The notes: generated by a model from the sequence alone, not told the origin. 64,000 bases of DNA from Candidatus Thorarchaeota archaeon (GCA_963726195.1 CAVSBO010000003.1:576001-640000), one strand, 5' to 3'. Counted from the stretch's first letter, positions 18,488 to 39,300 are shown. A program made the numbers and translations.

Positions 18488-18955
18488 ATGATGTGTGAAG
18501 ATGAATGTCGAAACCTTCCGAGATTGACTGTAGAGATCATGGGGCCCTCATGGATAGCCGGAGCAGTGACCGGCATCAAAGCGTCCAGAAGACGAAGCAC
18601 GGATTGGATTTGGGAATGTTTCGTCGAGGAGTTGTATGACACAGTCGAGCGGATGGGAGGAATTCAACCAGCCGAACCAGCCAGCTCACCGGCGGACGAG
18701 GACGGCTTCGCGGGCTCAGCATACGACACGCTGGGGGGTTACGTGAGCACAGCAGGCGAAATCCGTTCTCAGGGACTCTACTTCAGTCTCTCTCCGAAAC
18801 ACTATGAGAACGTTATGAGCCTGCTTCCGGACTTTGTGATGCTCAGGGCAAGAGGTGGTCTCATTGTGCCACACTATGAACTACGTTCCTTCCTGAATCT
18901 CGTGCCTGTGAACGGGCCGTTGTTGGACCAACTAGCCGAGGGGGGCATGCAATGA
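18488..18955 (+). CDS. Hypothetical protein
   Basis: Starts 1 nt after the previous stop; its stop overlaps the RadA start (ATGA). Confidence 0.7.
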   Translation: MMCEDECRNLPRLTVEIMGPSWIAGAVTGIKASRRRSTDWIWECFVEELYDTVERMGGIQPAEPASSPADEDGFAGSAYDTLGGYVSTAGEIRSQGLYFSLSPKHYENVMSLLPDFVMLRARGGLIVPHYELRSFLNLVPVNGPLLDQLAEGGMQ

Positions 18956-20028
18956 CAGAGCTTGAGGCGGTATCAGGAGTCGGGCCTGCAGTTGCCAAGA
19001 AACTGCGAGAAGTGTTTGTGACAACAGCTGAACTTCTAGCTGTGCAGAATCATGTGGACTTGCAGAACAAGACCAAGATGGGAGAAGGCACCGCTCTGAA
19101 GATCATACGAAACGCCAGACAATTGGTTGGGCTTTGCGGTTTCAAATCCGGTCTCGAAATCGAGCAAGAGATGTCGAGCAAGCCTAGGTTGAGTGTGGGA
19201 ATCGACAAGGCAAATGCAGCACTTCTTGGCGGAATTGAAACAGGTTCGGTCGTGGAGTTCTACGGTGCTGCCCGAAGTGGGAAGACACAGTGGTGCGGTC
19301 AACTTGCTGTTATGGTTCAGCTACCCAAGGAAAAGGGAGGACTTGAAGGCCGTGTGCTTTGGCTGGACACGGAGAGCTCCTTCAAACCATGGATTATCCG
19401 GGCAAACGCAGTGCGGTTTGGTCTGGACCCGGATGTTGCCTTGGGAAACATAGGTCATGCTCACATCGTAATGACTGAACAGATGACGCAGCTGTTTGAG
19501 AATATACCGCAGCTGTGCGCGGAGCAAGACTACAAGCTCGTAGTGATTGACTCATTGACTGGACTGTTCAGAGCTGAATACACCGGGCTTGAGCTACTGA
19601 GAGTGAGGCAGCAGGAAATGAACAGCCTCCTCAATCTGATGAGACGAACTGGTACCGCGACTGGCACAATCTTCTGCTACACCAACCAGGTCATGGCGAG
19701 CATGGGGACATTCAGGTCGAACCCGAACTCGCCCGTTGGCGGGCACATACTCTCGCACGCTTCTGACTATAGGTTCTACGTCAAGAAGAAGCTGAAGGAT
19801 GTGAGGGGTCTTCAGCTTCAAGATAATGCTGGAATACCCGAATTCGATCTTGATGTTGTCATTGGTTGGGGAGGGTTTTACACAGATGCGAAAACGAAGA
19901 AGAAACTCGAAGCAGACGTTCTAGAGTATCTTAGGAAAACCGGCTGGAACCCTGAGATCGCAGAGAGTGGCGAGGACTCTGAGGAAGTAAAGGAAGAGAC
20001 TGAGGAGATTGCGGAGGAAAACGAATAG
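18952..20028 (+). CDS. radA: RadA/Rad51-family recombinase (divergent paralog with acidic C-terminal tail)
   Basis: N-terminal HhH (VSGVGPAVAKKL), polymerisation-like FKSG, GGIETGSVVEFYGAARSGKTQ, VQLPKEKGGLEG, LDTESSF, LVVIDS, FRAEY, RQQ, TNQV and PVGGHILSHAS. Confidence 0.85.
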   Translation: MTELEAVSGVGPAVAKKLREVFVTTAELLAVQNHVDLQNKTKMGEGTALKIIRNARQLVGLCGFKSGLEIEQEMSSKPRLSVGIDKANAALLGGIETGSVVEFYGAARSGKTQWCGQLAVMVQLPKEKGGLEGRVLWLDTESSFKPWIIRANAVRFGLDPDVALGNIGHAHIVMTEQMTQLFENIPQLCAEQDYKLVVIDSLTGLFRAEYTGLELLRVRQQEMNSLLNLMRRTGTATGTIFCYTNQVMASMGTFRSNPNSPVGGHILSHASDYRFYVKKKLKDVRGLQLQDNAGIPEFDLDVVIGWGGFYTDAKTKKKLEADVLEYLRKTGWNPEIAESGEDSEEVKEETEEIAEENE

Positions 20029-20475: not shown

Positions 20476-21102
20476 ATGTCCGACACCGAGCATACAACGA
20501 CACCCATCTGGGTAGCGCCCACGCCCCCGAATGTCGCAGGAAGCTCTCTCATAAACTTGGCCAACCTGCTTCTAAGAGAGACAAACAACCGGGTCACAAC
20601 GCTCCGACAATGCGATGGCCCGAATCCGGAGCTCTTCATCGTTTCAAGAGTAGATTGGAAGGATTCCGACCCAGAGAAGCCCATGCTGCCTCAGTTGCCA
20701 AAGATTCTTTCTCTGCTTGAGACTTTGCGTGAGACGAAAGGCGTGCCTCACGAGATATTCTTGGATAGTAATGATGGTGTCGCAGTCTACTTGCCAACTG
20801 GATCAAGGGTTTCTGACCTGCCGCGGAACCCAAAAGAAGCCCTTCGGGTTCTCATGGCTCTCGTCCATGACACCGTCGCGAATATGCTCTCAACAATGCA
20901 AGATGTAGAAAACTGCTTCTGGATTGCCGCTCGCAGAAAGGGGTTCAGCCCTGAGATAGTCCAGAGAATGGCACTGAAGGAGCAACACTACGACTCGCCT
21001 GCGCTGGTTAGGGAGTTTCATAGAATATTGAGGAAGTACTTCTCGATTCGTTTTCACATTCAGAGGAGCGAGTCATGCCTGTACGTTGAGGAGGAAGACT
21101 GA
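20476..21102 (+). CDS. Hypothetical protein
   Basis: 208 aa ORF coupled to neighbours (TGATG overlap with the helicase). Confidence 0.7.
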   Translation: MSDTEHTTTPIWVAPTPPNVAGSSLINLANLLLRETNNRVTTLRQCDGPNPELFIVSRVDWKDSDPEKPMLPQLPKILSLLETLRETKGVPHEIFLDSNDGVAVYLPTGSRVSDLPRNPKEALRVLMALVHDTVANMLSTMQDVENCFWIAARRKGFSPEIVQRMALKEQHYDSPALVREFHRILRKYFSIRFHIQRSESCLYVEEED

Positions 21103-23058
21103 TGGCAACTGTGAACGGTCCTCTCCGATACTTTCCATATACGCCCAGGCCGTACCAGGACCGGGCCGTTGCATTCGCCGCTCAAGTATTCTCATCCAAA
21201 TCGGTGGGACTTCTCTCTGCAGATTGTGGAGTGGGAAAGACCATCGCATCTCTTTCAGGCTACCTCGCTGCGCGTGCAGACGATGGCGAATCAAGGTTGA
21301 TTGTTCTCACCCGGACACACTCACAAGCTCGCGTATTCGAGAATGAACTAGTGACACTAAGACGCCTTCTTCCTTCTCTGACTGCCACGACAATCCAGTC
21401 GAGGGTCCATACCTGTCCAATAAAGGAGCAGGTTGGGTCAGTGTCTCTCACGGGGTTCATGAGAGCATGTGCGAATCTGATCAGGACAGGCAATTGTACT
21501 CATTACTGGGCCTTCTACAGGAAAGGGGATGGTAGAACTCAGATAAGGGACGGGGTTCAGCACGAAGTAGACGACCTGCTCGACTCCGGTGTTGTCACCC
21601 GGGACATTGTCGATGATCGTGCACGTGACATGGCTGTTTGCCCATATGAACTGATGAAACATTGTGCTAGGGAGAGCCGCATCGTGATAGGCCCCTATAG
21701 CTACCTGTTTCGCGCCCGTGTACGTGATGCGACTCTCAGTTCGCTGGCTACGAGCCTAGAGAAGCTCGACGTCATAGTCGATGAAGCTCACAATCTTCCA
21801 GGTCATATTCTGGAATCAGAAGCGGCCAAATTGAGTTGGGACGATCTCAAATGGCTGAAAGAGAACTCTGCTGAAATTGCCAAGGATTCTAGCGTGAAGT
21901 GGTTGGCCCAAGCCACGAACTTCCTCTGGGAGACAGTGACGATTGCCCTTGACGGATTGAATTCACGCAATGAGAAGGTACTTGACAAATGGGACGTGGC
22001 TCCAAGGTTCGTGGACGAGAACGGCTTGCGGCTTGTGAGTGCGGCTGACACGCTACTTGGAGACCCGGATGCTCTGTCGACCGTTGAGACTCCCTTCGAC
22101 AGACTGATTGAGTTTCTACTCGCAGCATTACGGGCGGCGAAGAGCGACGACTGGCACATATCAGTCGAAACTCGAAAATCGTTTCAGGAAGAACAGAGCC
22201 ATCCGGCTTGCGAACTCGTGATCAGGCCGCTGAACTCTGCCGGTCTTGCCGCGCCCGTGTTGAGGGGTGCGCGTTCTGCCCTTCTAATATCCGGCACTCT
22301 GAGACCTCTCGAGTACTATGCGAGACAGCTAGGTATAGCCAAACCACTCTCAGAGGACCTAGCGAGTCCCTATCGACGTGGGACAAGACTCATACTGGTT
22401 GACAAGAGTGTGACTACCAAATATGAAGCTTAGAAACGATGAACTCTGGCGTCGAATGGCTCAACGAATCCAAACCGCTCTCTTGTCACTGCCCGCAAAC
22501 AAGAGCGCTCTCATAGCCTTCCCGAGTTATGCGATTCTGCATGAAGTCCTCAGCTATGGGATAGACACAGGATATCGGGGGACGATTGTAGAGAGTCCGC
22601 GAGAGCGAATAGAGAACCTTGTGGAAGCAATCCTTGAAGGTCCAAAGGCCGTTTTTTGCGTCTATGGCGGGAAGTTCAGCGAGGGCGTGGATTTGGCTCG
22701 AGACGGTTCGAGCCTACTCGAAATGATAGTCGGTGTGGGGTTACCGTTTACGCCACCTAGTAGCTACTTGGAGGCACAGCGGAATTGGCTCGACGCAAGA
22801 TTCGGTGAGGGCACGGGGTACTTCTATGGCTCAGTCATTCCGTCCGTAAGGCAGGTTCTGCAGCTGATTGGCCGATTGAGAAGATCGCCGGAGGATTCAG
22901 GCGTAGTAATCCTACTTGACAATCGTTTCCTAAGGTACACATCTGTCTTGGGCGAGGACATGGTATCTGACATCTGGCCATTTGCAGACCTCGAAGAAAT
23001 GAGACTAGCTATTTCTGAGTTCCAGAGACAGAGGGAGGTATGCACGATTGCGTCTTGA
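21102..23058 (+). CDS. XPD/Rad3/DinG-family Fe-S DNA helicase (frameshift at ~22428)
   Basis: Q motif FPYTPRPYQ, motif I GVGKT, TRTHSQ, four Fe-S cysteines (HTCP, RACA, GNCT, VCPY), DEAH and SGTL. The second ORF has FPSY, GGKFSEGVDL, VGLPF, QLIGRLRR and LLDNRF. Confidence 0.9.
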
Positions 23059-23650: not shown

Positions 23651-23942
23651 TCAGAGAACCGGGTTGACCCTGCCTCACAACGTGAAACCCGAGGCATTGA
23701 TGGATGCCCTCACAAAAGGTCATGGGTATCAATGGATTACCCTCGCAAGGCGGCCCGTCCTGTTAGTGTACGGTGAAGCGACTTCTCAAGAAATGCCCCA
23801 GCTTCTCTTTACGGGAAACACCACGCTCGTTGTTTCGAGTGCTGACCCAGCTTATGTGGAGCGTCTAAGAAGAATGCTGCAAGTACTCGAGCAGCAGGAA
23901 GAGAAGCAGTTCCTAGCACAGGAGGCCAAGAGCGGTGAGTAA
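23634..23942 (+). CDS. Small hypothetical protein
   Basis: TTG behind GGAGG; overlaps both neighbours. Confidence 0.6.
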   Translation: MQSSSSQRTGLTLPHNVKPEALMDALTKGHGYQWITLARRPVLLVYGEATSQEMPQLLFTGNTTLVVSSADPAYVERLRRMLQVLEQQEEKQFLAQEAKSGE

Positions 23943-26271
23943 AGGGTTAGTGGTGGGTCCCAAGCCCGAATATGACCCCTTTGGCGAAAGGACACAGTCT
24001 CCACAGGAGACATCTCCAACCGGAGAAATCAGGTGGGACAACAGAACTGCAGGCAGGTCCTTCAGACAATTAGGTGCAATGGGAATACTCATAGCTGTGC
24101 TTGGCACCGCATATCCTGAAGGTCTTCTCATTGGAACCGCGGCGATTCTCGCAGGCATCTTCTTACTATCTCGATTGAACGGACCTATGAAGATCGATGG
24201 CTGGATAACGTTGCAGCAGGGCGACGTTAGTCTTTCTTCGTCTGCTGGCAACCTTGAAGTCACCGATGTGAGGGGACGCAAGTATGCTGTCGGCATGACC
24301 TTGGACTCTGCTGGTGTCCACCTACTCGGAGACATGGGAGCACTCGTGCGGGCCGCGGACGACTCTAGCGGACTGTGTCTGTTGGTGAGTTTGAAGCCGA
24401 AAGATGGCAAAGCAATCCTGCAGGAAGACAAGATTAGCAGGTCCACTTGCAGGTTCTTGAATTCTCTTTCTGAAGAGGCGCTCAAGGGGTACTTCGATTC
24501 TCGTGGGGGTCTGTGGGCAGTCCATGCGACACTTATCGGATACGCAAGAGAACAAATCGGATTGCCTGTTCTTGAGTCCGCTTTGAAAGCGGCTGTGCCC
24601 GACCGCGGCTGGCAGACCATGAAGCCATTCGAATTACGTTCGCACATTGAAGAGGATGATGTCGTCGCCGACAATTCATCTTTCTATGGGACCGGGGAGG
24701 AGTTGTCCAAATGGCTGGTCCAGATGGCGACAGAACTATCGTCAGAAGTGGGCACAAACGTCCCGGCGGAATTCGTTGCGCCAATCAGAGAAAGAGAAGC
24801 AGACTACAAGCTAGGGTTCGTAATCAATCCTGAGACATTGCGGCTAGGTCCTCGAGTTGGGCTGTCCCACGGGGATCTCCTAGGCGGACTGATGGTTTGC
24901 GGGGGAACCCAGCCCGAAAGAGGGCTTGTATTGTCCCTTCTCACGGCGGAACTCCTGCAATCAGGCAAGAGAATCATCCTTGTGACCAATGACCGTGGCA
25001 CATTATCCTTGACAGGTCTGTGTGATGGCGCAGTCGGCCTTGAGCTTGGAAAGGACTTGGTGTTGAATCCTGCAGACCCAGAAGGAATGCAGAGAACAGA
25101 GTACGTGCCGCAGCTCATCGCGGCGCTCGAAGTGCTGTGTGGCACTGAGCTACGAACTGCAGTCGAGCTTGAGATTGCCGTCAACAGGGCGGCGAGTCTA
25201 GGAAACGGAACTGTGGCCGACATTGCGATGGCTGATTCCGCGGCAATGGGCACGACCACTGAGACTGATGCTTCGATTGGGACCACTGTGTCGAAGGCAT
25301 CACTGCTCGGCTTTGATGCTGTCCGCTCATTGCGTCAAGGCTCAGGGGCCAATGCATTCTATGGCACACAGACTGTATCGCTCCAGACGATGGCTCAAAC
25401 ACCCCTAGTTGTCATCGTGATGTCCCTGGAATCTTCGGCACTTCAGAGATTCGCTTGGGACCTGTTGTCAATAAAGGTCAGTGGAATGAAACCAGACTCC
25501 GATTTGGTTGTCATCCTTGATAACCCAGAGAACCTGCGAGTCAGGAATAGACCATTTGGAAATCGTGATGTTCGAAGCGAGAACATAATTCGCAAGCTGA
25601 TAATCAGAGGACCATTACTTGTTGCTTTGGACCATCCTGCTGACATGGCCGTCGGAGCCATCGGCAACCTTTCTTCATGTCTATCACTTCGACTCCGCGA
25701 TAGTGCAGACCTGAAAGTTGCTTCCGATCTTTTGGGTCTTGGAGTCATCGCCACGGGACTACACAGCAAGGCCAGACAATCATCCAGAGAGACATCCTTC
25801 CTGCGTGTCATGCCGCCGGACGTGGCGGTTCTGTCACGCGGCAGATCGGAGATTGGTATCCCAATTAGGTTGGACAAGACACCAACATCCCTCGGAACAC
25901 CTCCTCCACAGGAATTGTCGCGCAGGATATCTCGGTTTTCGCCGAGCTCCAAGGACAAAGAGACTCAGGCCAAGACTCTGCTTGAACAAGTCGCAGGCGG
26001 AGACACGGAGTTGGCCCGGAGTGTCCTCCGTTTGTTGATGAGGTACGAGCCTCTCACTGAGGAGGCCGTTCGGAAATTCATTAGGTCGGACAAGCGTCAT
26101 GAGAATGCGGACGTCGAGGGAATCTTGGCCCGCTTGGAAAGGGCGAACATGATTCTTCGTGGGCACGAAGTGCACGGCGGTGTATCTTACACTAACTTCC
26201 GTGTTACGATGAAAGGAACAATGGCAATGCGGCAAGAAGTCCCAGAAGGTGGTCGCGATGTTGGTCACTGA
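23935..26271 (+). CDS. Membrane-anchored HerA/VirB4/CedB-like (DUF87) ATPase homolog with degenerate Walker motifs and C-terminal wH domain
   Basis: Two N-terminal TMs. VGLSHGDLLGGLMVCGGTQPERG at the Walker A position, ELGKDLVLNPADP, VVILDNPENL at the Walker B position, and ALDHPADMAVGAIGNLSSCLSLRLRDSADL. Confidence 0.65.
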   Translation: MSKGLVVGPKPEYDPFGERTQSPQETSPTGEIRWDNRTAGRSFRQLGAMGILIAVLGTAYPEGLLIGTAAILAGIFLLSRLNGPMKIDGWITLQQGDVSLSSSAGNLEVTDVRGRKYAVGMTLDSAGVHLLGDMGALVRAADDSSGLCLLVSLKPKDGKAILQEDKISRSTCRFLNSLSEEALKGYFDSRGGLWAVHATLIGYAREQIGLPVLESALKAAVPDRGWQTMKPFELRSHIEEDDVVADNSSFYGTGEELSKWLVQMATELSSEVGTNVPAEFVAPIREREADYKLGFVINPETLRLGPRVGLSHGDLLGGLMVCGGTQPERGLVLSLLTAELLQSGKRIILVTNDRGTLSLTGLCDGAVGLELGKDLVLNPADPEGMQRTEYVPQLIAALEVLCGTELRTAVELEIAVNRAASLGNGTVADIAMADSAAMGTTTETDASIGTTVSKASLLGFDAVRSLRQGSGANAFYGTQTVSLQTMAQTPLVVIVMSLESSALQRFAWDLLSIKVSGMKPDSDLVVILDNPENLRVRNRPFGNRDVRSENIIRKLIIRGPLLVALDHPADMAVGAIGNLSSCLSLRLRDSADLKVASDLLGLGVIATGLHSKARQSSRETSFLRVMPPDVAVLSRGRSEIGIPIRLDKTPTSLGTPPPQELSRRISRFSPSSKDKETQAKTLLEQVAGGDTELARSVLRLLMRYEPLTEEAVRKFIRSDKRHENADVEGILARLERANMILRGHEVHGGVSYTNFRVTMKGTMAMRQEVPEGGRDVGH

Positions 26272-28463
26272 GACTGACATACCAAGCTACGTTCAGAAAG
26301 TGCTTGGTGGCATCGGCCTAGCACCGCGGGGCGTCCAAAAGGCGGCCATTGACAACGGGTTGCTCGAAGGAAAGAGCATCATGGTATGCAGTCCGACTGG
26401 TTCAGGCAAGACTCTCGTTGGCGAAATGGGTGTTCTTCGAGCTGTGGTTTCTGGTCGAAAGGGGCTGTATATGGTACCACTTCGGGCTCTTGCGCTTCAG
26501 GTCGCATCGATATTCAGAGAGAGGTACGGAAGAATCGGCATCAGAGTCGGAATGAGCACTGGAGACTATCAGACCGACGGATCGGAGTTGGCAGAATGTG
26601 ACGTTGTTGTTACAACATATGAAAGAGCCGACTCTCTCCTGAGGCATCAAGCGTCTTGGATAACCGAGATAGGCACGATCGTGATTGACGAGGTTCAGAG
26701 TATTTCAGAACCAAGAAGAGGAGCCCGCCTCGAGAGCACGATTATTCGATTCAACCGGCTTGTCGACGACCTACAAATCATAGCTCTCTCGGCTACGATA
26801 GCAGCTCCCGATGAACTGGCAGAATGGCTTCGATGCGATCTTATCGAGAGTGACGAGAGGCCCGTTCCGCTCCACTGCAAAGTCCTATGCTGCAATAGCA
26901 AACAGGGAATGGTCAAGGACCTAGTTATGACTACTGTGCAAGGGAACGGACAAGCAATCGTTTTCCATCGAACCCGAAGAGAAGCTGAAGTTGAGGCGTT
27001 CCGTCTAGCGTCAGATGTAGGCCGTCAGACTCACAATAGCAGAGAGGAACCGCCTCGACACCGAGCTGGAGTCTCTCGAGAACTGGGCAGTCAGAGTACC
27101 GTCGGAATTGAAGACTGTGATGCACGATGGTACCGGCTTCCACCATGCGGGTCTCAACGCTAGAGTCCGTGATGTTGTTGAACGGCTGTTTCGCACCGGG
27201 CTCATTAGGGTGGTTTGTGCCACAACAACTCTCGCCGCCGGCATGGACCTGCCAGCTCGCACAGTCATAGTCACATCAGTGATTTCGCCTGAGAACAACG
27301 GAGAACTCCTAAACGCCAATAGGGTGCACCAGATGCTCGGCAGAGCAGGACGCCCGAGCCATGACAAGATTGGAGTCGGCATCATACTTGCAGGAAGCGA
27401 GGGCGAAGCTGACGAGCTTGAAGTGAGGTACTTTGAAGACAGAACTGGAGAAGCTGCCGAAGAAGTTCTAATCCCGAAGTATGACAGAGCCAGAAGTGTC
27501 CTAGGTTCTCCGAGTTCGACCACTGAGCAGCTTTTGGTTGCCCTCGATGCAATGGGAGAAGCGTCACTGCAGGAAGTCGAGGACGGAATAATGAGCCAGT
27601 CATTCTTGACGTATTGCGGTATTAGGGACACCCATTCTCCCGCGCGCCTGATCAATCTCGGGGAAATTACGGCTCAGGCCGCAATTGAACACCATGCTCT
27701 GCCCGATTCGCTTCGTGCAGCCAGACAGAAGCTGCTGGGTGCTGTGACTTTCAGAGAGAAGGACGAGACCGCCATAGGTGCCATAGTCACGGACTGGGAC
27801 CGCACTCAATACACATGTCGGTATTCCACTCGGCTATCAAGCAGTGGACTTGTGGATGGCCCACAATGCTCCTGCGGCCGGCCCATTGACCCCCAAGGCA
27901 TACTCTGTACGCACCTGCTTGTGTTGGGTCTGTCAGCGGCCGCGGAGCTGGGTAGCTTGGCAGACTATGTCATTCCCTTGTCTCTCAGCGAATCAAGTCC
28001 ACTTGGTGTCTTGACCAAGCTCGGACTAGTGGAGGGCGCGGAAGAGGGAAAGCTTAGGCCAACTAAGCTTGGGCGTTTGGTCAACCGGTTGTATCTAGGT
28101 CTGCCAACAGCCAGGGAAATGATTGCCCTTCTGCCTACAGTGGAGGACAGTACTTCCCTGCTCTGGCTCGTCAGGCACTTGGTTTCACTGGAAACGGGCA
28201 TGGCGCTAACCGAGCAATTCGAACAGCTAATCGCTGCATTAGCGTCTACTGACACAACAATCGCGGATTTGGCAAGGATTGCGGAACTTCACGAAGGAGA
28301 CGTATACGGTCTCATAGAGACAGTGCGATGGTTGCTGCATTCCATTGACGCCGTTGCGGCCCTCGGTGGATTGTCGAATGTCTGCGGAATGACAACCCGG
28401 TTGTCAGATGCTATCGAATCTAGAATGAAAAAGGGTGAATCCAATGACAACAACGGAAGCTGA
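26258..28463 (+). CDS. Ski2-like (Hel308/HELQ-type) DNA helicase with inserted SWIM zinc finger (frameshift at ~27029)
   Basis: SPTGSGKT, PLRALA, TTYERADSLLR, IDEVQ, LSAT, RPVPL, FHHAGL, ATTTLAAGMDLPA and QMLGRAGRP; SWIM CSC-x11-CTH; PTKLGRLVNRLYL. Confidence 0.88.
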
Positions 28464-30219
28464 CACACCAATGGATATTCCCGAGAAGACCAAGCAATCT
28501 CCTGGAACAGCCAATCAAACGGCAGCGCAGGAAGAGACCAGACGAGAAGCCAGTGACATCACTGCCATCCTAAAGAGCTCGGGTCACAGGGTTCATGTCT
28601 ACTCAAATGGGATCATACTAGGAGTCCGACTAGAGGCAATTCCCGGGACCCACAGCGTGCATGTTGACATCGCGCACGTGGTTGACCTGCGTTCAGGGAA
28701 AGTCTGGAAGACCACTACCGCTATGATGGCTGCGGTATTGGGACTTGTTAACAAATCGCTCCAAAGCATTCTCGAGGACATCGGTCTTGAGGAATCGCTG
28801 AAAGAGAAGCTATTGACTATGCCTTGGGGTCGAATTCGCCTGTCCACGCTTTTGGCACAATCAGGGAAGACCTCCTCGATAGCAATTGAGACGAGATGGG
28901 CGTATGTTATCTACAACGAAGTCCGACCCAAAGCAGACCTTTCCTGGCTGACAGATACAAAGAGAGTACTGAGTATCACCGACTTTGCTCTTTCGCGCCA
29001 GAGCGACATAAGGGCGTCAGCTGCGAAGCTGAGAACCATAATAGCCACTAACAAGACCAGCATGATTCGGGGTGCTGTGGGAAACGGGTGGTATGGCGTG
29101 CTAGCCCTTGTCGCCTCATTGGGTGGACTGATGACTGCCTCAGCGGTCGGCCTAACGCATCCAACCGGAATGGCCATTCCGCTCGTCTTTGCAGGAGTGG
29201 CGGGAGCCGTTGCCATCGACCTTCTATTCACATCAAGAAAGAGGTTCAAAAAACTCGTAAGCGTATTGAAGACCGAGAACCTACGTGCGTCTGAAGTGGG
29301 AGACTCTGTCAGAGCCAAGGAATCGGCTGCAAAGAACCGAGATCTGCTAGAGCTATTGGAAGACCTCACTTTCGTGGTTTCTCCCCTGATGGTGATGGCG
29401 GCTGAAGCACTGCAAGCAGGAGAAGTTGACCGCGCTGTTTCGTCAGCCTCTTGCGTTCTGGATGAGTGTGTACGGCTCGCGCCTTACTCTGGAGACAACG
29501 TGGAACCTATCCTTGGGAGAACAGACGAAGGCCTGAGGAGGTTTCTCGGATTCATGAAACGTCTCGGGGCCACATCAGAAGAAGAGACCTTGGCGGTTGC
29601 CTACGTGGGACTCACGGGACATCTATCGAGTCCGATTGGATTCAGTGAGGTTGTCGCCCACATGACATCACTGACCAATGCGCTCTATGATGTTGGAGTG
29701 CTCAGCCAAGAAGCAAAGGACAAACTCGACAACGTCATGAACACGTGGGCCATGAAGAAGTACGCTGGTGAACTTGAAAATAGCCTTCGAGAACCAGATG
29801 AACCCGAGCCGGTTCCATCTTCGACGCGGGCAGAAGTAGGGACTCAACCAGAACTCACCCACCCTGTGGCGCGCAAGAGGCAAACCGACAGACAAGGTGA
29901 TGTCAAACAGACGTTTGGGCTCATCCGTGATTCTACAACCACTCCTGAAGACTCGCCGCCCATAGAGAAAGTGAAAACACCTGTTGTGTTGCCGATGCAG
30001 GAGTCGCTTGACAGAGCGGATCCTATGAAGTCTACCGGCCGCGACGACCGAGGTCCATCTGAGAAGGGAGGCGAAGTTGTCAAGGTTACGATTCGCAAGA
30101 GAGACAACAGGATTACTCAACTGCAGAGTCAGAAGCCTCTCGCAGAGGCTGTGGTCGGACAGCCTGCCAGCGGACATGCCGCGAAAGGAGAAGAAAGCAA
30201 TGAGGACCCAGACGTGTAG
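28444..30219 (+). CDS. Hypothetical membrane protein (central TM hairpin, disordered C-terminal tail)
   Basis: Hydrophobic WYGVLALVASLGGLM...MAIPLVFAGVAGAVAIDLLF; P/E/K-rich C-terminus; overlaps both neighbours. Confidence 0.7.
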   Translation: MTTTEADTPMDIPEKTKQSPGTANQTAAQEETRREASDITAILKSSGHRVHVYSNGIILGVRLEAIPGTHSVHVDIAHVVDLRSGKVWKTTTAMMAAVLGLVNKSLQSILEDIGLEESLKEKLLTMPWGRIRLSTLLAQSGKTSSIAIETRWAYVIYNEVRPKADLSWLTDTKRVLSITDFALSRQSDIRASAAKLRTIIATNKTSMIRGAVGNGWYGVLALVASLGGLMTASAVGLTHPTGMAIPLVFAGVAGAVAIDLLFTSRKRFKKLVSVLKTENLRASEVGDSVRAKESAAKNRDLLELLEDLTFVVSPLMVMAAEALQAGEVDRAVSSASCVLDECVRLAPYSGDNVEPILGRTDEGLRRFLGFMKRLGATSEEETLAVAYVGLTGHLSSPIGFSEVVAHMTSLTNALYDVGVLSQEAKDKLDNVMNTWAMKKYAGELENSLREPDEPEPVPSSTRAEVGTQPELTHPVARKRQTDRQGDVKQTFGLIRDSTTTPEDSPPIEKVKTPVVLPMQESLDRADPMKSTGRDDRGPSEKGGEVVKVTIRKRDNRITQLQSQKPLAEAVVGQPASGHAAKGEESNEDPDV

Positions 30220-30883
30220 TCATTCCTTTCCGACCTTATTGAAAATCACAGGGCTGGTCCATGTTTGGGGTCCTGCAGGTGCTGGCAAGAGCCTGCTCGC
30301 CATCGCAATTGCGGCCGAGGCATCTCTCGACTCTCGTGTCGAGTGGATCAGCACAGATGGCAAATCATCTTTCATATCTCATCTGAAAAGAAACGTGCAA
30401 CACCGTGGGAGTGCTGCCAATGTTTTCGTCACAATGACGCACAACCACAATGAGGTGCGGCAGACCATTCTCGACCTTGTCACCTCTCTTGAAGGCATGA
30501 GTGCGTTGATTGTGGTCGACCCCTTGACACGTGTCGTGGACATGGCACGTTCCGAGCCTGTAATGTGGGGCCAAGAACTCATCGAAGAAGCCTTGCCAAC
30601 TCTAGCAGCCCTCGCAGCTGGCGGATCAATTGTGCTTGTTACGAGCGAGTGCAGGTCACTTGAGGAAGGAGAGAAGACGCCTGTTCATCACAAGACCATC
30701 AGACGCTGGGCGGACAACGAAATCCTCGTGCAGAGGGAAAAGGCCAGCATGTACTCGACAATCACCAGCATTGATCCGAAGTCTGGTGCACAGAAAGAAG
30801 TCGGCCGACTAAGACTCCTGGAAACAGGATTGATTGAGATTAGTATCTGTCAGCCCGGGTCAGAAACAAGGAGGAGCACTTAG
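30200..30883 (+). CDS. RadB-like RecA-fold ATPase (Rad51 paralog without N-terminal domain)
   Basis: VHVWGPAGAGKS Walker A, WISTD, LIVVD Walker B, VLVTSECR. Confidence 0.75.
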   Translation: MRTQTCSHSFPTLLKITGLVHVWGPAGAGKSLLAIAIAAEASLDSRVEWISTDGKSSFISHLKRNVQHRGSAANVFVTMTHNHNEVRQTILDLVTSLEGMSALIVVDPLTRVVDMARSEPVMWGQELIEEALPTLAALAAGGSIVLVTSECRSLEEGEKTPVHHKTIRRWADNEILVQREKASMYSTITSIDPKSGAQKEVGRLRLLETGLIEISICQPGSETRRST

Positions 30884-30886
30884 GAC

Positions 30887-31858
30887 ATGTTTGGAGGCAT
30901 TCTATGGAAAGGAATTGTGTTCGGCATGGCAGTCATGCTGGTCTTGACTGTCGGGACCGAACTCTTGGCATCAGTCGTGTCCGTCGTGGTGTCTGCCCGC
31001 CGCGGCGACCTAATTCCTATTGTCACGGTCTTTCTCGGTACTCTCTTCATTTCCCTAATCCTGCGGCGACTCAAGAAGCACTCTCCGACCAAGTTACTCT
31101 TGTCAATCTTGGTCTACGGAACAATCGGATACGCAGCCGTGGTTTCATTCATAGCTGTTCTTCCATGGGGCCTTCTTCCATCTCTCATGTCCGCGTCGAT
31201 GACAATACTTGGCTTCTCGGTTGCAGCGACTCCCACGCGGTTTGGAGCGTATCGTTCGCAGACCAAGCTTCGTTCTCTGGCACTGCGTACAGACAACCCA
31301 TCAGGTCGAATTACATCATCGGCGATTGCTGCTCTGTCCGACGCCCTCACGGAACAGGCAAGGGTTGTAATCATTCAGGAAGGGGACAGGGACAAGGTCG
31401 TTCAGCTCATGAAGGAGCGACCCCTTCTGCCCGTATCGATTACTCGCCTTGCCGACTGTTATGCAGTTGTCGTCACGTCCCCAAATTCCGACGAGGTTGT
31501 CTTTCGCAGAGCAATCGACACATTGTCAGAGTTTGGCATATCCCGTGTGAAGCGCGCACGGCATTTGCTCGCAGAGGCTATCCTCATGCTTCCGCTCATT
31601 GACGAGTCATATGGTTTCAGCATGCGTGAGTACCGAGTTGTAAGGGACGACACGACGATGACGCACGTGATTTCTCAATGGCCCGAAAGACTGACTATCT
31701 TTGCGACCAAAGAAGGTCTCGGGGCTCTGGTTCCGGAACGGGCCGCCACAGGTCTGAAGACTGAGCAACTCCCGCGCGGCCTTGAAACCGACGTGGTTCT
31801 GTTTAGGAATTACTCTCTGCTCCAAGGAGATGATGAGTCTGGATCACAAGCCGCTTGA
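30887..31858 (+). CDS. Hypothetical membrane protein (about 4 N-terminal TM helices plus soluble domain)
   Basis: Hydrophobic first ~115 aa; AGGAG upstream; 3 nt after the previous stop. Confidence 0.72.
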   Translation: MFGGILWKGIVFGMAVMLVLTVGTELLASVVSVVVSARRGDLIPIVTVFLGTLFISLILRRLKKHSPTKLLLSILVYGTIGYAAVVSFIAVLPWGLLPSLMSASMTILGFSVAATPTRFGAYRSQTKLRSLALRTDNPSGRITSSAIAALSDALTEQARVVIIQEGDRDKVVQLMKERPLLPVSITRLADCYAVVVTSPNSDEVVFRRAIDTLSEFGISRVKRARHLLAEAILMLPLIDESYGFSMREYRVVRDDTTMTHVISQWPERLTIFATKEGLGALVPERAATGLKTEQLPRGLETDVVLFRNYSLLQGDDESGSQAA

Positions 31859-32561
31859 AGAGATTGAAGTGGACACTACTCCTCGTTTTTCGTTAGTGCC
31901 CAAAACACTAGACGCGGTGTTGGGAAGACTGCTCGCGCCTAGCCAAGTCAGCCTGCTGCATGGTCCCAACCGTGCGCCACTGACAGCGCTTGCACACTTG
32001 GTTACTGTATGTGCAGCCAAAGCCGACGGAAAACGTTCCGTCTATCTGCATGCCGGGAACAACTACAGTCCGACGTTGGCAAGATCGTTGTGCGGCCGCA
32101 ACCAAGACGCTTCGGACATCCTTCAGCGCATAGCAGTCGGAAAGGTGCTTGGTCTGTCAGACATAGAGCACGAGCTATCACTGATTCGCGACGCAGAACG
32201 CGTTCAGTTGGTTGTGGTTGATAGCCTCACGTCAGTCCTTGACTTGAGCGATAGCAGCACCGGTCCAGGAAGACAAAGAAAGCTCTTTCACGCGCTCGAA
32301 ACAATGAGGGAATTCGTCAATAACAGTTCGGCCCACTTGATGATGACAGATCACTCCTCACCAAGTTGGGGCTCAGACGAGCCTTCTCCAATCGGTGGGA
32401 ATGTTGTAGCACACAACGTTGACAGCGTCATACGCGTTGAGAGGTTGGACATCGCTTCCGACGACCTAATCAGCATAGTTGTGGAGAGATGTCCTCTTCC
32501 CAGTCCGCCAACAGGTGTGGTTGTCAGGTTCTCAGCAAAGAGCATCAGTAGCATCAAGTGA
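31830..32561 (+). CDS. Catalytically degenerate RadA/Rad51 paralog
   Basis: LDAVLG, Walker A position LHGPNRAPLT (no GKT), VYLHAGNNYSP, ILQRIAV, LVVVDSL, RQRKL and PIGGNVVAHNVD. Confidence 0.75.
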   Translation: MMSLDHKPLEEIEVDTTPRFSLVPKTLDAVLGRLLAPSQVSLLHGPNRAPLTALAHLVTVCAAKADGKRSVYLHAGNNYSPTLARSLCGRNQDASDILQRIAVGKVLGLSDIEHELSLIRDAERVQLVVVDSLTSVLDLSDSSTGPGRQRKLFHALETMREFVNNSSAHLMMTDHSSPSWGSDEPSPIGGNVVAHNVDSVIRVERLDIASDDLISIVVERCPLPSPPTGVVVRFSAKSISSIK

Positions 32562-32570
32562 GGTCTCTAG

Positions 32571-33557
32571 ATGGGCGTGAAGAAATTCAGCGTGATACCG
32601 TGGATCTGGGTCGGTTCAGACGAAATCTTGGGAACGATTGCTATTGATGCGCCGAACTACATCACGCGAAGAATCTCAGTCTTCAAGCAGAAGAACAAGT
32701 ACAAAGACCGAGTACCTCTTGAGCACCTTCTACTGGGATTCGGCCTTATCAGGACTGCACTCCTGAACAAGGTCTTGCCAGTCTTGATTTTCGATGGACC
32801 GCCAGAATCATTGAAGAGGGAACCAAATCCGGAGCTCGTAGCAAGAGCTCACGAAGTCTATTCTGAGTACTCGCAAGACGGCGACCCATACAACGAAGAA
32901 GTCGCCAAGAGCCTTTCAAGTAGCCCAGCGCTACGCATGTACTTCGCGGCCCAGCACCTCAGAGACTTGGGCCGTGCGATGGGTGTGCCCACTTTGACTG
33001 CATCATCTGAGGCGGAAATGCTGTGCGCGGCAATGTGCAGAGACTCCCTTGTCAAGACAGTCGTATCAAATGATGCAGACGCCATGCTCTTTGGAAGCCC
33101 TCACGTGACGAACCACATGGAGTTATCTCGAGGCCGCATCTGTCGAGCCACCCTTCATGACCTTGAAGAATCATTGTGTCTCGGCCTGGACCAACTGAGG
33201 GACTTGGCAGTTATCTGCGGCTGTGACTTCAACAATGAGGGCATCAAAGGGGTGGGTCCTCATCGGGGAGCCATCCTGTTGAAGAGATACGGGAATCTGG
33301 AAGCTGTGTTGAGAGCGAAAGGGTATGGACGAGCTGAGAGAGAACCGCTGCTTCTTGCGCGTGAAGTCTTCGAACAGACTGCGTACATTTCGCTGGCAGG
33401 TCTCGACATCGCACTTAGACCGCCCATGGTCTCACGGCTGGTTTCGATTCTTCTGCCTTGCTTTGGTCGCCAAAGAAGCGAGGATTCCGCTGAACAGATG
33501 GTCAGCATCTGGCGGGATTTTGGAAAACATCAAGCCACTTTGGAGCAGTGGGTGTAG
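32571..33557 (+). CDS. FEN1/XPG-family 5' flap nuclease paralog with C-terminal PIP box
   Basis: MGVK, IAIDA, IFDG, SEAE, SNDADAMLFG, GCDFN, H3TH GIKGVGP and terminal QATLEQWV. Confidence 0.9.
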   Translation: MGVKKFSVIPWIWVGSDEILGTIAIDAPNYITRRISVFKQKNKYKDRVPLEHLLLGFGLIRTALLNKVLPVLIFDGPPESLKREPNPELVARAHEVYSEYSQDGDPYNEEVAKSLSSSPALRMYFAAQHLRDLGRAMGVPTLTASSEAEMLCAAMCRDSLVKTVVSNDADAMLFGSPHVTNHMELSRGRICRATLHDLEESLCLGLDQLRDLAVICGCDFNNEGIKGVGPHRGAILLKRYGNLEAVLRAKGYGRAEREPLLLAREVFEQTAYISLAGLDIALRPPMVSRLVSILLPCFGRQRSEDSAEQMVSIWRDFGKHQATLEQWV

Positions 33558-36390: not shown

Positions 36391-39300
36391 ATGAGAACCA
36401 AATGTCTTCTTGTTGCGGCTGTCCTAGTCGTGCTCATTGCATGCACGTACCAGTATCCGGCCACCAGCGGTTATCCGGCGTCGGCACCGATTCCTGCCTT
36501 TGCTCTAGGCCCTCAGAAAACAACTATGAGCCTAGCATCAGATGATGGGGCTCCTGTTGACATGAAGCCCTACTTCATAATCGAGATGCCAAATTCGAGC
36601 ATTCCAGCACGAGGGAGGGTCTGGTCAGCAATCCTAAACTCCGCGGGCATCGTAAGTCACGTGTTTACCATACAACAAATCATGGCAAAGCCCACATTGC
36701 TACAGCATGTCCCCGCAGCTCTCCTAGATGCAAGCTTGGGTTCAGCAAACGGGAGCCAAGTGTCAAGCTCGTTCATGCATTTGCTCGTCTCCTGCGATGT
36801 CGCTTTGGTACTGACCGGCAGAGCAGCTTGGCTCTTGCACAGTCTGAGGGGAACACCTTTGGGATCAGTGACCGCAACGGCTTCTCAAAGACTCCTCACA
36901 GCTCAAGGATACGAAGCGGCAATATTCCTCAGCCTCTCCAATCGCGCTGTCGGTGAATTCCGCGCTCACGGAAGAGACCAATATTCAGTTACCAGTTGAC
37001 CAAGTTCAAGGCGAGCATTCTCGCATTGTGAATCTCACTGGGGCGGAGAATCCAACAAGCGTCGCAGCGCTTCGATATGATTCGTACCCGCTTGACACAT
37101 TCCTGTTTGGTCCCGATGACCCCTCCAAGTTAACAGACCAAGGTCGTGGACTGTTGGTCAACATGATATCATTTGCGGTTTCTCTCAGAGAGACTCCTAC
37201 CACCCAAGCAGTGAGCCAGCTTCAGGCACCCTCCGAGGCTCCGCTTGCTGGAGGATATCACTATCCGCATGAACCGACTCTGAAGGCAGCCTACGCCGCG
37301 GTGCACTCAGTCAAGTCTGCGCTGGACGCATCAAACTGGTCTAGCTGGAGTTCCCAGCATCAATCACTGATTGAAGAACTCCTAGATAGTCTGTTCATTG
37401 ACTACGGCTCACAGGCCGGGTTCATGAACTCGGTGAGTGAAAACACGGTCGGTCTTCAGAGCACAGCAGAAGGACTGTGGCTGGCTGCCTCTATGGGCCT
37501 ACTTCCACGATATCACTCCGACAAGATTGTTTCGTATCTCAGCTTCAAGAGAAGACGCCGGGGGAGGCTTCGCCAACGATATTGCGACAACGTACTTGGT
37601 TGTCGAGAGTCTTGGTTTGTCAGGCAATCTTGGAAGCATCAACACAGTCAGTCTGGAATCTTGGTTGCGCAGCTGCATCATAGATGGATCCAAGACATCC
37701 AACCCCGATCTCTGGGGTGCAGTGGGACAGAATCCGAACAGCACCGCGGCGAGGACATCCTACGCGGCTCAATATGTACTATCTCTGCAAGTACTGGGGA
37801 AAACTCACGGCGACCCGCTCAAACTGACGAGCTGGATCAAGACCCGCATGTCCAATGGTGACGGTTCATACATGGAAGTTTTTGGCTCAAGTGGTGAACT
37901 CGTCACCGGAACCTCGTCAGCTCTCACGGCTATGGCAATCATGAACACACTCAGCGCTCAAAACCGGACGACAGGACTGTCTTGGCTGGCTTTCAACCAA
38001 TTGCCTTCGGGCGGCTTTGGTTTGACCGTAGCGGCCACTGACAACGTGGGCAAGACGTGGCCCACTCTAACAGTCGCCCTATGCATCCAAGCGATTGGAC
38101 AACAATCTGAGTCGATGGCAAGGAATGTGATTAGCTTCGTATCGCTTTGTGAGAACCGATATGGGCTTTGAAGCGATGGAACCAATACCATCGCTCATGT
38201 GGAGCGATTGGCTCGCGTCAATCTCAAGGCTGTCACATTCGGAAGGATTCTCGGATAGTGCTCTTGCCGAAATGTATGCCGTTAGCATGCTTGGGTGGTC
38301 TGAATACCCAGGCAATGTGACCGCTGCAACATCTATTGAGTACGGGCCCACCCAGTACCGAATGCAGAGCGTTTGGACACAGTACTTCGGGGCAGCCACC
38401 TACTCCGCACTCGGCAGTGATATTCCTGATTCCGCGGTCTCGGCTGCCGAGTCGTATCTTTACCAGTGTCAAGATTCGTCAGGACATTACAAGCCAACGT
38501 CATTTATGGGAACGCCGCAGATGCAATACACAGTTGCGGCCGTCGAAGCTCTCTATTTGATGAACGCACTCAACACGATTCGTTACAGGACCAGCCTAGG
38601 CTCGGCGATTCTGGCCGAGTTTAGATTGGGGCACTGGTCAATGGATGGTTGGACTCTCAGACCATTTACCAACCAGCAATCTGCAATTGACTGGCTCTGT
38701 ACAAGAGCCGCTCTCAGACTTGGTATACTCGACTCTGCAAAAGCCCTGCAGATAGTGCAATCAATCAAGGCGAGAATCCAGTACTCTGACATCTGGGCAC
38801 TCAGCAGAGATGTTGCAACTCTGGCACTTCTCAATGCATCGGGATTTCAGGCGAGTCTTGGGTGCATCAACACACAGGCAGTCATCCAGTCTCTAGGCAG
38901 CACGCCCTTCTCAAACGGATGGCTCAACTCGACTGACCTGTGGCAGCCCGTCTATACCGCAGGAGCGCTGGAGATGATTTCAATCCTAGGTCTCCGCGCA
39001 CGCCTTGCGAACCTGTCGAGCGGCTCTATTCACGCGACCGGACCATCAACGGGAGAGATTAGCTCCTCTCTCAATCTAATGGTCTCGATTTCTCCACTCT
39101 CCGGTCATCATAGTGTCCTTGTCTTTGCGTTCGGAAACTGGCTCCTGTTTCGGAACGTGGGTGACAACGATTCGATTGAACTCACAATTCCCAGTGACTA
39201 CAGAGTTCTTGGTCCAAGCAACATATCCGTTATGCTTCGGGACTTCGGCGTGACAAAGGCATACTCCATAGTCCCACTGCAAGTACGAGGCGTACTTCAA

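Follow-up and report, generated by a model that had tools for sequence, protein, structure and literature searches.

A probable Hel308-type helicase paralog with a SWIM-type insert in its winged helix, encoded in a RadA operon of Thorarchaeota

Helicases of the Hel308/HELQ group control the extent of recombination, and animal HELQ works together with RAD51 paralogs. The stretch of DNA analyzed here (hereafter, the window) is a 64,000-nucleotide segment of Candidatus Thorarchaeota archaeon (GCA_963726195.1 CAVSBO010000003.1:576001-640000), which encodes, at positions 26258-28463 of the plus strand, a Ski2/Hel308-type superfamily 2 (SF2) helicase of about 735 amino acids (aa) as a single gene. 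The question raised by this locus is whether the product is an ordinary Hel308 or a separate enzyme with a SWIM zinc finger built into its motor, and what its position beside genes of the RadA family implies for its role. The picture that we consider likely is that of an intact Hel308-type paralog that bears a SWIM module in its winged helix, lacks domain 5 of Hel308, and belongs to a recombination operon.

On the plus strand, positions 26249-28463 are covered by two overlapping open reading frames (ORFs) lying in different frames, 26249-27163 and 27108-28463 (the second frame being open from 27021), the first of which yields the DEAD-type RecA1 domain and the second, read from 27042, RecA2 and a C-terminal region of 350 aa. 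A database search with the second part of the helicase returned about 300 relatives from Thorarchaeota and other Asgard metagenome-assembled genomes, and the two ORFs were regarded as one gene because the full-length relatives are nearly all single proteins of 716-752 aa in a continuous frame, the closest being 733 aa long with 82% identity. The listed helicase ORF opens upstream at GTG 26249; ATG 26258 was taken as the start, and the stop codon lies at 28461-28463. The DNA alignment with the 80%-identical orthologue locus L016 revealed exactly one surplus A, at 27029, which shifts the frame by +1 (CAG-A-CTC in the window against CAG-CTC in the orthologue). The part located 5' of this site (26258-27028, RecA1 and the start of RecA2) matched Pfam DEAD (E-value = 1e-30) and aligned with residues 1-257 of the orthologue at 85% identity, and the part located 3' of it (27030-28463, RecA2, the winged helix with the SWIM insert, the ratchet, and the stop) matched Pfam Helicase_C (E-value = 5e-8) and residues 246-734 of the orthologue at 79% identity.

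All of the catalytic motifs sought were present, namely, Walker A (SPTGSGKT, 26390-26413), motif II (26687-26698), which reads DEVQ as had been stated in the initial annotation of this DNA, and motif VI (HQMLGRAGRP, 27327-27356); motif II was DEIQ or DEVQ in close orthologues and DEIH in distant ones. The family profile matched Brr2, Hjm, ASCC3, and Hel308 chains of the PDB at E-values of about 1e-100 (353, 351, 345, and 344 bits, respectively). When the orthologue was used as a single sequence, the best match was the solved Hel308, with 258 bits over residues 8-392 only (Brr2, 224 bits); that is, sequence similarity to solved Hel308 ends with the RecA core. With motifs I, II, and VI intact and domains 3 and 4 present, the protein falls within the wider Ski2-like/Hel308 clade of SF2 helicases, and it contains a complete SF2 motor whose winged helix and ratchet are arranged as in Hel308.

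The winged helix is interrupted, between its helices and its wing, by an insert of about 120 aa (27627-27992, plus strand), which according to the AlphaFold2 model and the profile alignment consists of linker helices, a four-stranded beta-sheet, the SWIM finger, and two helices. The putative zinc-ligand motif CSC-x10-CTH was found exactly at 27867-27914 (plus strand), between motif VI and the PTKLG segment of the wing, where the initial annotation had placed a Cys/His cluster; its assignment draws on column conservation, the Pfam SWIM scores of homologues, and the profile alignment. The four ligand positions and the Leu that follows the His were invariant both in 23 orthologues and in 32 homologues with identity down to 20%, and the residues around these five columns almost all change among the distant homologues. 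Judged by the alignment, the invariance of the Cys/His columns is far above what a chance pattern of cysteines would yield, and the conservation predicted for the cluster was thereby confirmed. The spacer of 10 residues between CxC and CxH falls inside the range of 6-16 residues typical of SWIM domains (PMC5727457). In the AlphaFold2 model of the C-terminal region (predicted local distance difference test (pLDDT) = 88), the insert contains four beta-strands, the last of which terminates in CxC, and the next helix begins with CxH; the same arrangement was obtained when the insert was modelled alone (pLDDT = 85).

The search with the Pfam SWIM profile (PF04434), proposed in the initial annotation as a check, gave a divided answer: the window's own motif scored 9.4 bits (E-value = 1.1), which is under the curated cut-off of 19.6, whereas homologues carrying the same columns reached 32.9 bits. 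The profile matched 6 of the 32 family members at E <= 1, the best at 7e-4. In a survey of 81 Asgard genomes, SWIM matches above the curated cut-off were found inside helicase-length frames that were confirmed as members of the family. The highest of these scores belonged to the active member L097 (32.9 bits), which shares 33% identity with the orthologue across residues 23-711, keeps Walker A and DEIH intact, and has the motif in the textbook form CSCPDF...CKH; L110 scored 26.8 bits, ATP-dead paralogs 21-24 bits (22.5 for the one of this genome, described below), and others 21-27 bits. The profile of the insert could also be aligned with that of 18 unrelated non-helicase SWIM proteins of Asgard archaea with CxC and CxH in register (P = 2.3e-4, probability 44%). 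Because the window's own Pfam score lies under the cut-off, membership in the SWIM group rests on homology, by which the insert is established as a SWIM-type zinc finger that would bind zinc; in its sequence, the Thorarchaeota clade has drifted from the Pfam SWIM consensus with the four ligands retained. The internal SWIM finger claimed at the outset was thus upheld by the invariant ligands, the predicted fold, the homologues above the cut-off, and the in-register profile alignment.

Past the insert, the wing of the winged-helix domain, together with the PTKLG segment (27993-28097, plus strand), aligned with the canonical Hel308 of the same genome from residue 434 onward; in the hhalign comparison, the alignment resumed at the wing and extended over residues 434-602 (probability 95.8%, E-value = 8e-9). 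The ratchet domain (domain 4; 28101-28451, plus strand) is a helical bundle that continues to the C-terminus, and Pfam Helicase_dom4_arc matched 29 of the 32 family members (best E-value = 2e-7). In the AlphaFold2 model, the C-terminus consisted entirely of this helical bundle. The model was superposed by VIA-align on Hel308 2va8 with Z = 14.0 and a root-mean-square deviation of 2.4 Å over 191 residues (chain 418-660), on residues 403-664 of Hjm 2zj2 with Z = 14.0, and on Brr2 with Z = 16.0; about 200 of its 325 ordered residues were superposed on domains 3-4 of Hel308, the remainder being the insert. No helix-hairpin-helix (HhH) family was found among the Pfam matches of the 32 family members, and in the profile alignment the last residues of the SWIM helicase coincided with the end of domain 4 of the canonical Hel308, in which Pfam located the winged helix at residues 355-446, domain 4 at 489-615, and HHH_5 at 622-674. 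The absence of HhH domain 5, noted in the initial annotation, therefore holds, since the protein stops where domain 4 ends. In Hel308, domain 5 is a brake on the ATPase and helicase activities and a DNA-annealing element (PMC13623763).

The canonical Hel308 of this genome (L007) is a 710-aa ORF with a full-length match to Hjm (534 bits) and with HHH_5 present. The RecA core of the SWIM helicase is 38% identical to it, and domains 3-4 are superposed on those of Hel308/Hjm at Z = 12-14, whereas the SWIM insert of about 120 aa, the lack of HhH domain 5, and the DExQ form of motif II (in the Thorarchaeota clade) set the SWIM helicase apart. Because the genome also has a canonical five-domain Hel308 at another locus, the SWIM helicase is a paralog and not the Hel308 orthologue; most likely, it is an Asgard-specific paralog of Hel308. 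Consequently, its description as Hel308/HELQ-like stands insofar as the protein is Hel308-like without domain 5, but it is not an orthologue of HELQ or Hel308 and does not belong to the canonical five-domain Hel308/HELQ group, to whose characterized Hel308 members L007 is closer.

Two further relatives were found in the same genome, which brings its proteins of this kind to four. One is a helicase of the ASH-Ski2 type (L008, 873 aa) with a DUF5814 domain. The other is an ATP-dead, SWIM-bearing paralog (P0123, 739 aa) on contig C8 at about 28283-30502 of the minus strand (L010:1321-3540:-), which is collinear with the SWIM helicase along its entire length at 22% identity (E-value = 7e-15). It has the same layout, with a SWIM finger inserted at the corresponding point (Pfam SWIM, 18-22.5 bits) and without domain 5, and it differs in that Walker A reads TYDYDEAY, motif II reads ERLD, and motif VI is also lost. 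Its neighbors are the genes of a succinyl-CoA ligase, RsmB, and a PUA protein, with no recombination genes among them. Orthologues of the dead paralog were present throughout the family, and a pairing with the active helicase similar to that of the Brr2 cassettes was raised as a possibility. A quick maximum-likelihood tree of the active and dead SWIM helicases, the genome's own Hel308, and ASH-Ski2 was unresolved and gave long-branch warnings, and neither monophyly nor the age of the duplication was drawn from it.

The profile of the C-terminal region had matches in 189 of the 301 Asgard genomes sampled, which is an upper bound for the SWIM family proper, because the matches with E-values of about 1e-6 are probably ordinary Hel308 ratchet domains. 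In the window's own family, all 76 genomes contained matches, usually two or three each (an active, a dead, and a weaker one). An exhaustive search with the C-terminal region against 1.84 billion representative proteins gave 17 matches, and those with names were all from Asgard archaea (Hermodarchaeia, Jordarchaeum, and Helarchaeales); no eukaryotic relative of the C-terminal region was found in this search. In the Asgard family f9 (for example, G040:C35, G147:C5, and G210:C9), the profile matched longer frames of 840-860 aa at E-values of about 1e-40, and these forms seem to carry an extra domain.

The helicase gene is part of an operon of 15 genes that is kept across Thorarchaeota, with an identical order in four Thorarchaeota-type loci and with most genes overlapping or abutting. 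At the 5' end, RadA follows two unknown genes, and XPD lies between two pairs of small genes; next come the gene for a protein of about 780 aa without a Pfam match and the helicase gene. Downstream of the helicase, a RadB-like ATPase is encoded between a protein of 490-590 aa and one of about 320 aa, and the series closes with a RadA paralog and FEN1. This order recurs in L001-L004, L014, and L016. In the window, where all of the following lie on the plus strand, the RadA recombinase (18952-20028) is 61% identical to RadA of the syntenic locus L001, a protein with Pfam Rad51/RecA_N matches. The XPD-type helicase (21102-23058) was recovered by tblastn with XPD of L001 as two collinear pieces in different frames, with a break near 22425-22431 and ORFs at 21102-22433 and 22423-23058, whereas its orthologue is one protein of 652 aa. 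The 778-aa protein without a Pfam match (23935-26271) overlaps the helicase start with its end and is encoded directly upstream of the helicase also in L001-L004, L014, and L016; the 594-aa protein (28435-30219), likewise without a Pfam match and with a hydrophobic central stretch, overlaps the helicase stop with its start. Further downstream are the RadB-like short RecA-fold ATPase (30200-30883; weak Pfam AAA_25), whose Walker A GPAGAGKS is intact, the RadA paralog (31830-32561; Pfam Rad51, E-value = 7e-7) with the degenerate Walker A GPNRAPLT, and, as the last gene of the operon, a flap endonuclease of the FEN1/XPG type (32571-33557; Pfam XPG_I, E-value = 4e-16), syntenic in L001-L004, L013, and L125.

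The association with RadA-family genes extends well beyond the window. In about 28 of the 29 Thorarchaeota genomes in which both were located, a single contig carries the helicase and RadB-like genes at a distance of 2-3 kb. The sole exception seen was G055, with the helicase gene on one contig and the genes of the RadB-like protein and the dead RadA paralog on another (C10 and C4). RadB-like homologues with a Pfam Rad51 match adjoin the helicase in L013 and L015, and the RadA paralog with the dead Walker A was present in 37 of the 41 genomes of the family. In Jordarchaeum, the genes of a 631-aa protein, the helicase, a small protein, the RadB-like protein, and FEN1 follow one another, with RadA upstream; in another lineage outside Thorarchaeota, a Rad51-family gene lies two genes away from the helicase, and in two further family-level lineages RadA, or RadA and FEN1, lie no more than 4 kb from it. 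The Rad51-paralog-like neighbors pointed out in the initial annotation thus accompany the helicase across deep Asgard lineages, which is strong evidence for a pathway shared by the helicase and RadA-family proteins.

Several results weigh against the reading of this gene as an intact recombination helicase with an internal SWIM module. Besides the score of the window's own motif under the Pfam SWIM cut-off, the isolated insert model had no Foldseek match in the PDB at E <= 0.001, and its comparison by VIA-align with 48,161 chains gave weak similarities, the best with C-terminal domains of sulfatases (Z = 5.0). The scores of the RecA core against the RNA helicases Brr2 and ASCC3 nearly equal those against Hel308. 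Gene neighborhood speaks for a shared pathway and not for physical contact, and the substrate (DNA or RNA), the polarity, and zinc binding are each inferred. Finally, the extra A at 27029 stands outside any homopolymer, although a true mutation at this site is given a very low probability. It should be noted that in the VIA-align list the SWIM region of ZSWIM8 ranked fifth (weak, Z = 4.4 over 74 residues) with an identity of 20%, the highest in that list, and that a sequence-profile search of the PDB with the insert returned only L31 and eIF1, both at the level of chance.

If the frameshift were real, the helicase copy would be a pseudogene, and the breaks at 27029 and in XPD would reflect decay of the operon in this lineage. 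The presence of frameshifts in 2 of the 15 genes of the operon, each coding for a helicase, would agree with this, as would the position of the extra A away from a homopolymer run. However, when the ORFs of a same-genus genome with a length of 200 aa or more and a match of at least 55% identity in this genome (an assembly of 2.9 Mb in 19 contigs) were compared, 14 of the 82 (17%) matched the assembly in more than one frame, the affected genes being spread over several contigs and unrelated in function (for example, C5:98840-99782, C4:214648-215347, C3:812436-814084, and C16:78326-79520), a result that fits indel errors and does not fit decay on the scale of 17% of a small genome. Moreover, the two halves of the helicase have retained 79-85% identity to the orthologue and every motif, 27029 is the sole break, and in the same-genus genome G155 the frame is open over 755 aa. 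Decay of the operon is thus improbable. Assembly error is favored over a pseudogene because the frame-split genes make up 17% of those compared and have unrelated functions; the frameshift at 27029 is probably an assembly indel, with the gene intact in the living cell. A programmed +1 frameshift was rejected, as the orthologues, intact proteins of 726-741 aa, are all continuous through the site. A gene for a PLP (pyridoxal phosphate)-dependent enzyme (Pfam PALP) on contig C8 of the same genome (L012:14821-16372, minus strand) was also split into two ORFs. Judging by such sequences, the assembly seems to contain many indel errors, and calls of pseudogenes in it need caution.

For an intact helicase, the working would follow that of Hel308: ATP hydrolysis would drive the threading of single-stranded DNA, in the 3' to 5' direction, between the RecA domains and the ratchet. 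Without the brake and annealing element of domain 5, the enzyme would be either unbraked or controlled in trans by its partners. In the helicases Mtr4 and Ski2, the inserted module recruits partners and substrates. Because the SWIM module occupies the position of the Mtr4 and Ski2 arch, which is inserted in the winged helix (PMC10946056), it would, by analogy, probably serve as a docking or targeting surface toward other operon products or a particular DNA structure, in the setting of RadA-dependent recombination or repair. A narrower form of this idea, in which the module is the helicase's direct docking site for the RadB-like protein or for the RadA paralog with the dead Walker A, in the manner of Shu2/SWS1, appears unlikely. 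It would agree with the adjacency of the helicase and RadB-like genes from Thorarchaeota to Jordarchaeum and other lineages, with the solved structure of the Shu complex, where the SWIM domain of Shu2 provides the interface toward the Rad51 paralog Shu1 (PMC5727457), and with the binding of HELQ to the BCDX2 paralog complex (PMC13623763). However, no specific similarity was found between the insert and Shu2/SWS1, whose chains appeared neither at E <= 10 in the PDB profile search with the insert nor among the listed rows of the fold searches, although the two may be distantly related; the dead paralog carries the same SWIM insert in a locus without recombination genes, so that the finger is not tied to RadA-paralog neighbors; and the 778-aa (upstream) and 594-aa (downstream) proteins, whose genes overlap the helicase gene, are equally good candidates for partners. 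Co-folding of the C-terminal region of the helicase with the RadB-like protein and the dead RadA paralog (alignments of 30-32 rows) gave 0.00, which speaks neither for nor against binding.

A role of the SWIM module other than protein docking, as a nucleic acid-binding element at a branch point or duplex arm at the motor entry or as a structural zinc brace, is doubtful but deserves more weight than direct docking onto the paralogs. The module is located in the winged helix, called the substrate-recognition domain in a review of HELQ/Hel308 (PMC13623763); the original prediction for SWIM fingers was the binding of DNA or proteins (Makarova et al., 2002, as cited in PMC5727457); and the finger is kept in ATP-dead paralogs outside any recombination operon. 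At the same time, the surface of the module beyond the ligands varies widely among lineages, which would be unusual for a DNA contact. It is very unlikely that the protein is instead an RNA helicase of the Brr2/ASCC3/Ski2 kind, engaged in RNA surveillance or ribosome rescue and not in DNA repair. The family profile does score Brr2 and ASCC3 as high as Hjm and Hel308, and an accessory domain within the winged helix is a hallmark of Mtr4 and Ski2 (PMC10946056), but the operon contains RadA, XPD, two RecA-fold paralogs, and FEN1 in the lineages examined, the single sequence scores best with Hel308, and a separate helicase of the ASH-Ski2 type (L008) is encoded elsewhere in the genome. A more elaborate conjecture, to which only a low probability can be attached, is that the SWIM module recruits the unbraked motor to the pair formed by the RadB-like protein and the dead RadA paralog, the pair itself being held at the membrane by membrane proteins of the operon and the 778-aa protein as a scaffold. 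If this were true, the Asgard module of helicase, SWIM finger, and paralogs would be a mediator and a functional forerunner of HELQ-BCDX2 and SWS1-SWSAP1.

The preferred reading, that of a Hel308-type recombination helicase with a SWIM module as its accessory surface, finds partial likenesses in several known systems. Hel308/Hjm (2p6r, 2va8, 2zj2) and the helicase domains of HELQ/POLQ have the same order of RecA1, RecA2, winged helix, and ratchet and a similar recombination or repair setting. Mtr4 and Ski2 are Ski2-like helicases whose winged helix likewise contains an accessory module (PMC10946056); however, their insert is a stalk with a KOW barrel and works with the RNA exosome, whereas that of the SWIM helicase is a SWIM finger on a small beta-sheet in a DNA recombination context, and the two are not homologous. 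In the SWI2/SNF2 ATPases with SWIM of bacteria and archaea, the founding architecture, an SF2 motor and a SWIM finger are also joined in one polypeptide. These are Snf2-type double-strand translocases with the finger outside the accessory domains of the motor, whereas here the motor is of the Ski2/Hel308 type and the finger lies inside the winged helix. Shu2/SWS1 is a SWIM protein likewise linked with Rad51/RadA paralogs, its SWIM domain in Shu2 being the paralog-binding surface (PMC5727457), but it is small and stands alone without a helicase, and only the generic SWIM motif and the neighborhood were found to link the SWIM helicase with it. Of the proposal in the initial annotation that the locus encodes a prokaryotic counterpart of the network of HELQ, the Shu complex, and RAD51 paralogs, the likeness of gene neighborhood remains; specific similarity to Shu2/SWS1, orthology with HELQ, and a eukaryotic relative of the C-terminal region were not found, and the parallel is one of analogy by gene neighborhood and not a demonstrated counterpart.

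No description of a SWIM finger inside a helicase of the Ski2/Hel308 type was found in the literature searched, and this architecture is unmentioned in the 2024 survey of archaeal Ski2-like helicases (PMC10946056) and in the 2026 review of HELQ/Hel308 (PMC13623763). The locus would represent a second Hel308-type motor in which the self-inhibiting domain 5 has been exchanged for a SWIM finger and which is still encoded beside RadA paralogs, XPD, and FEN1. It offers a concrete and expressible set of proteins for asking whether helicases and paralogs were already coupled before eukaryotes arose and which function a SWIM finger has within a helicase. The present window adds to this the frameshift with its probable cause and the passing of the Pfam SWIM cut-off in active members of the family.

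As to the surroundings of the operon, its upstream end is flanked by a GH3-family gene (PF03321) in L001, L002, L003, and L014, that is, in every Thorarchaeota-type locus seen; because this flank is constant, the operon occupies a fixed chromosomal position and looks vertically inherited and not mobile. In the distant locus L014, a giant surface-protein gene lies inside the operon, right after the downstream neighbors of the helicase. In the window, a giant surface-type protein is encoded downstream of the operon (36391-41658, plus strand; G000:C3:612391-617658), which is distributed over at least four frames in the assembly; its orthologues are at least 2600 aa long and show faint matches to Prenyltrans, MG2, MG4, and Big_1.

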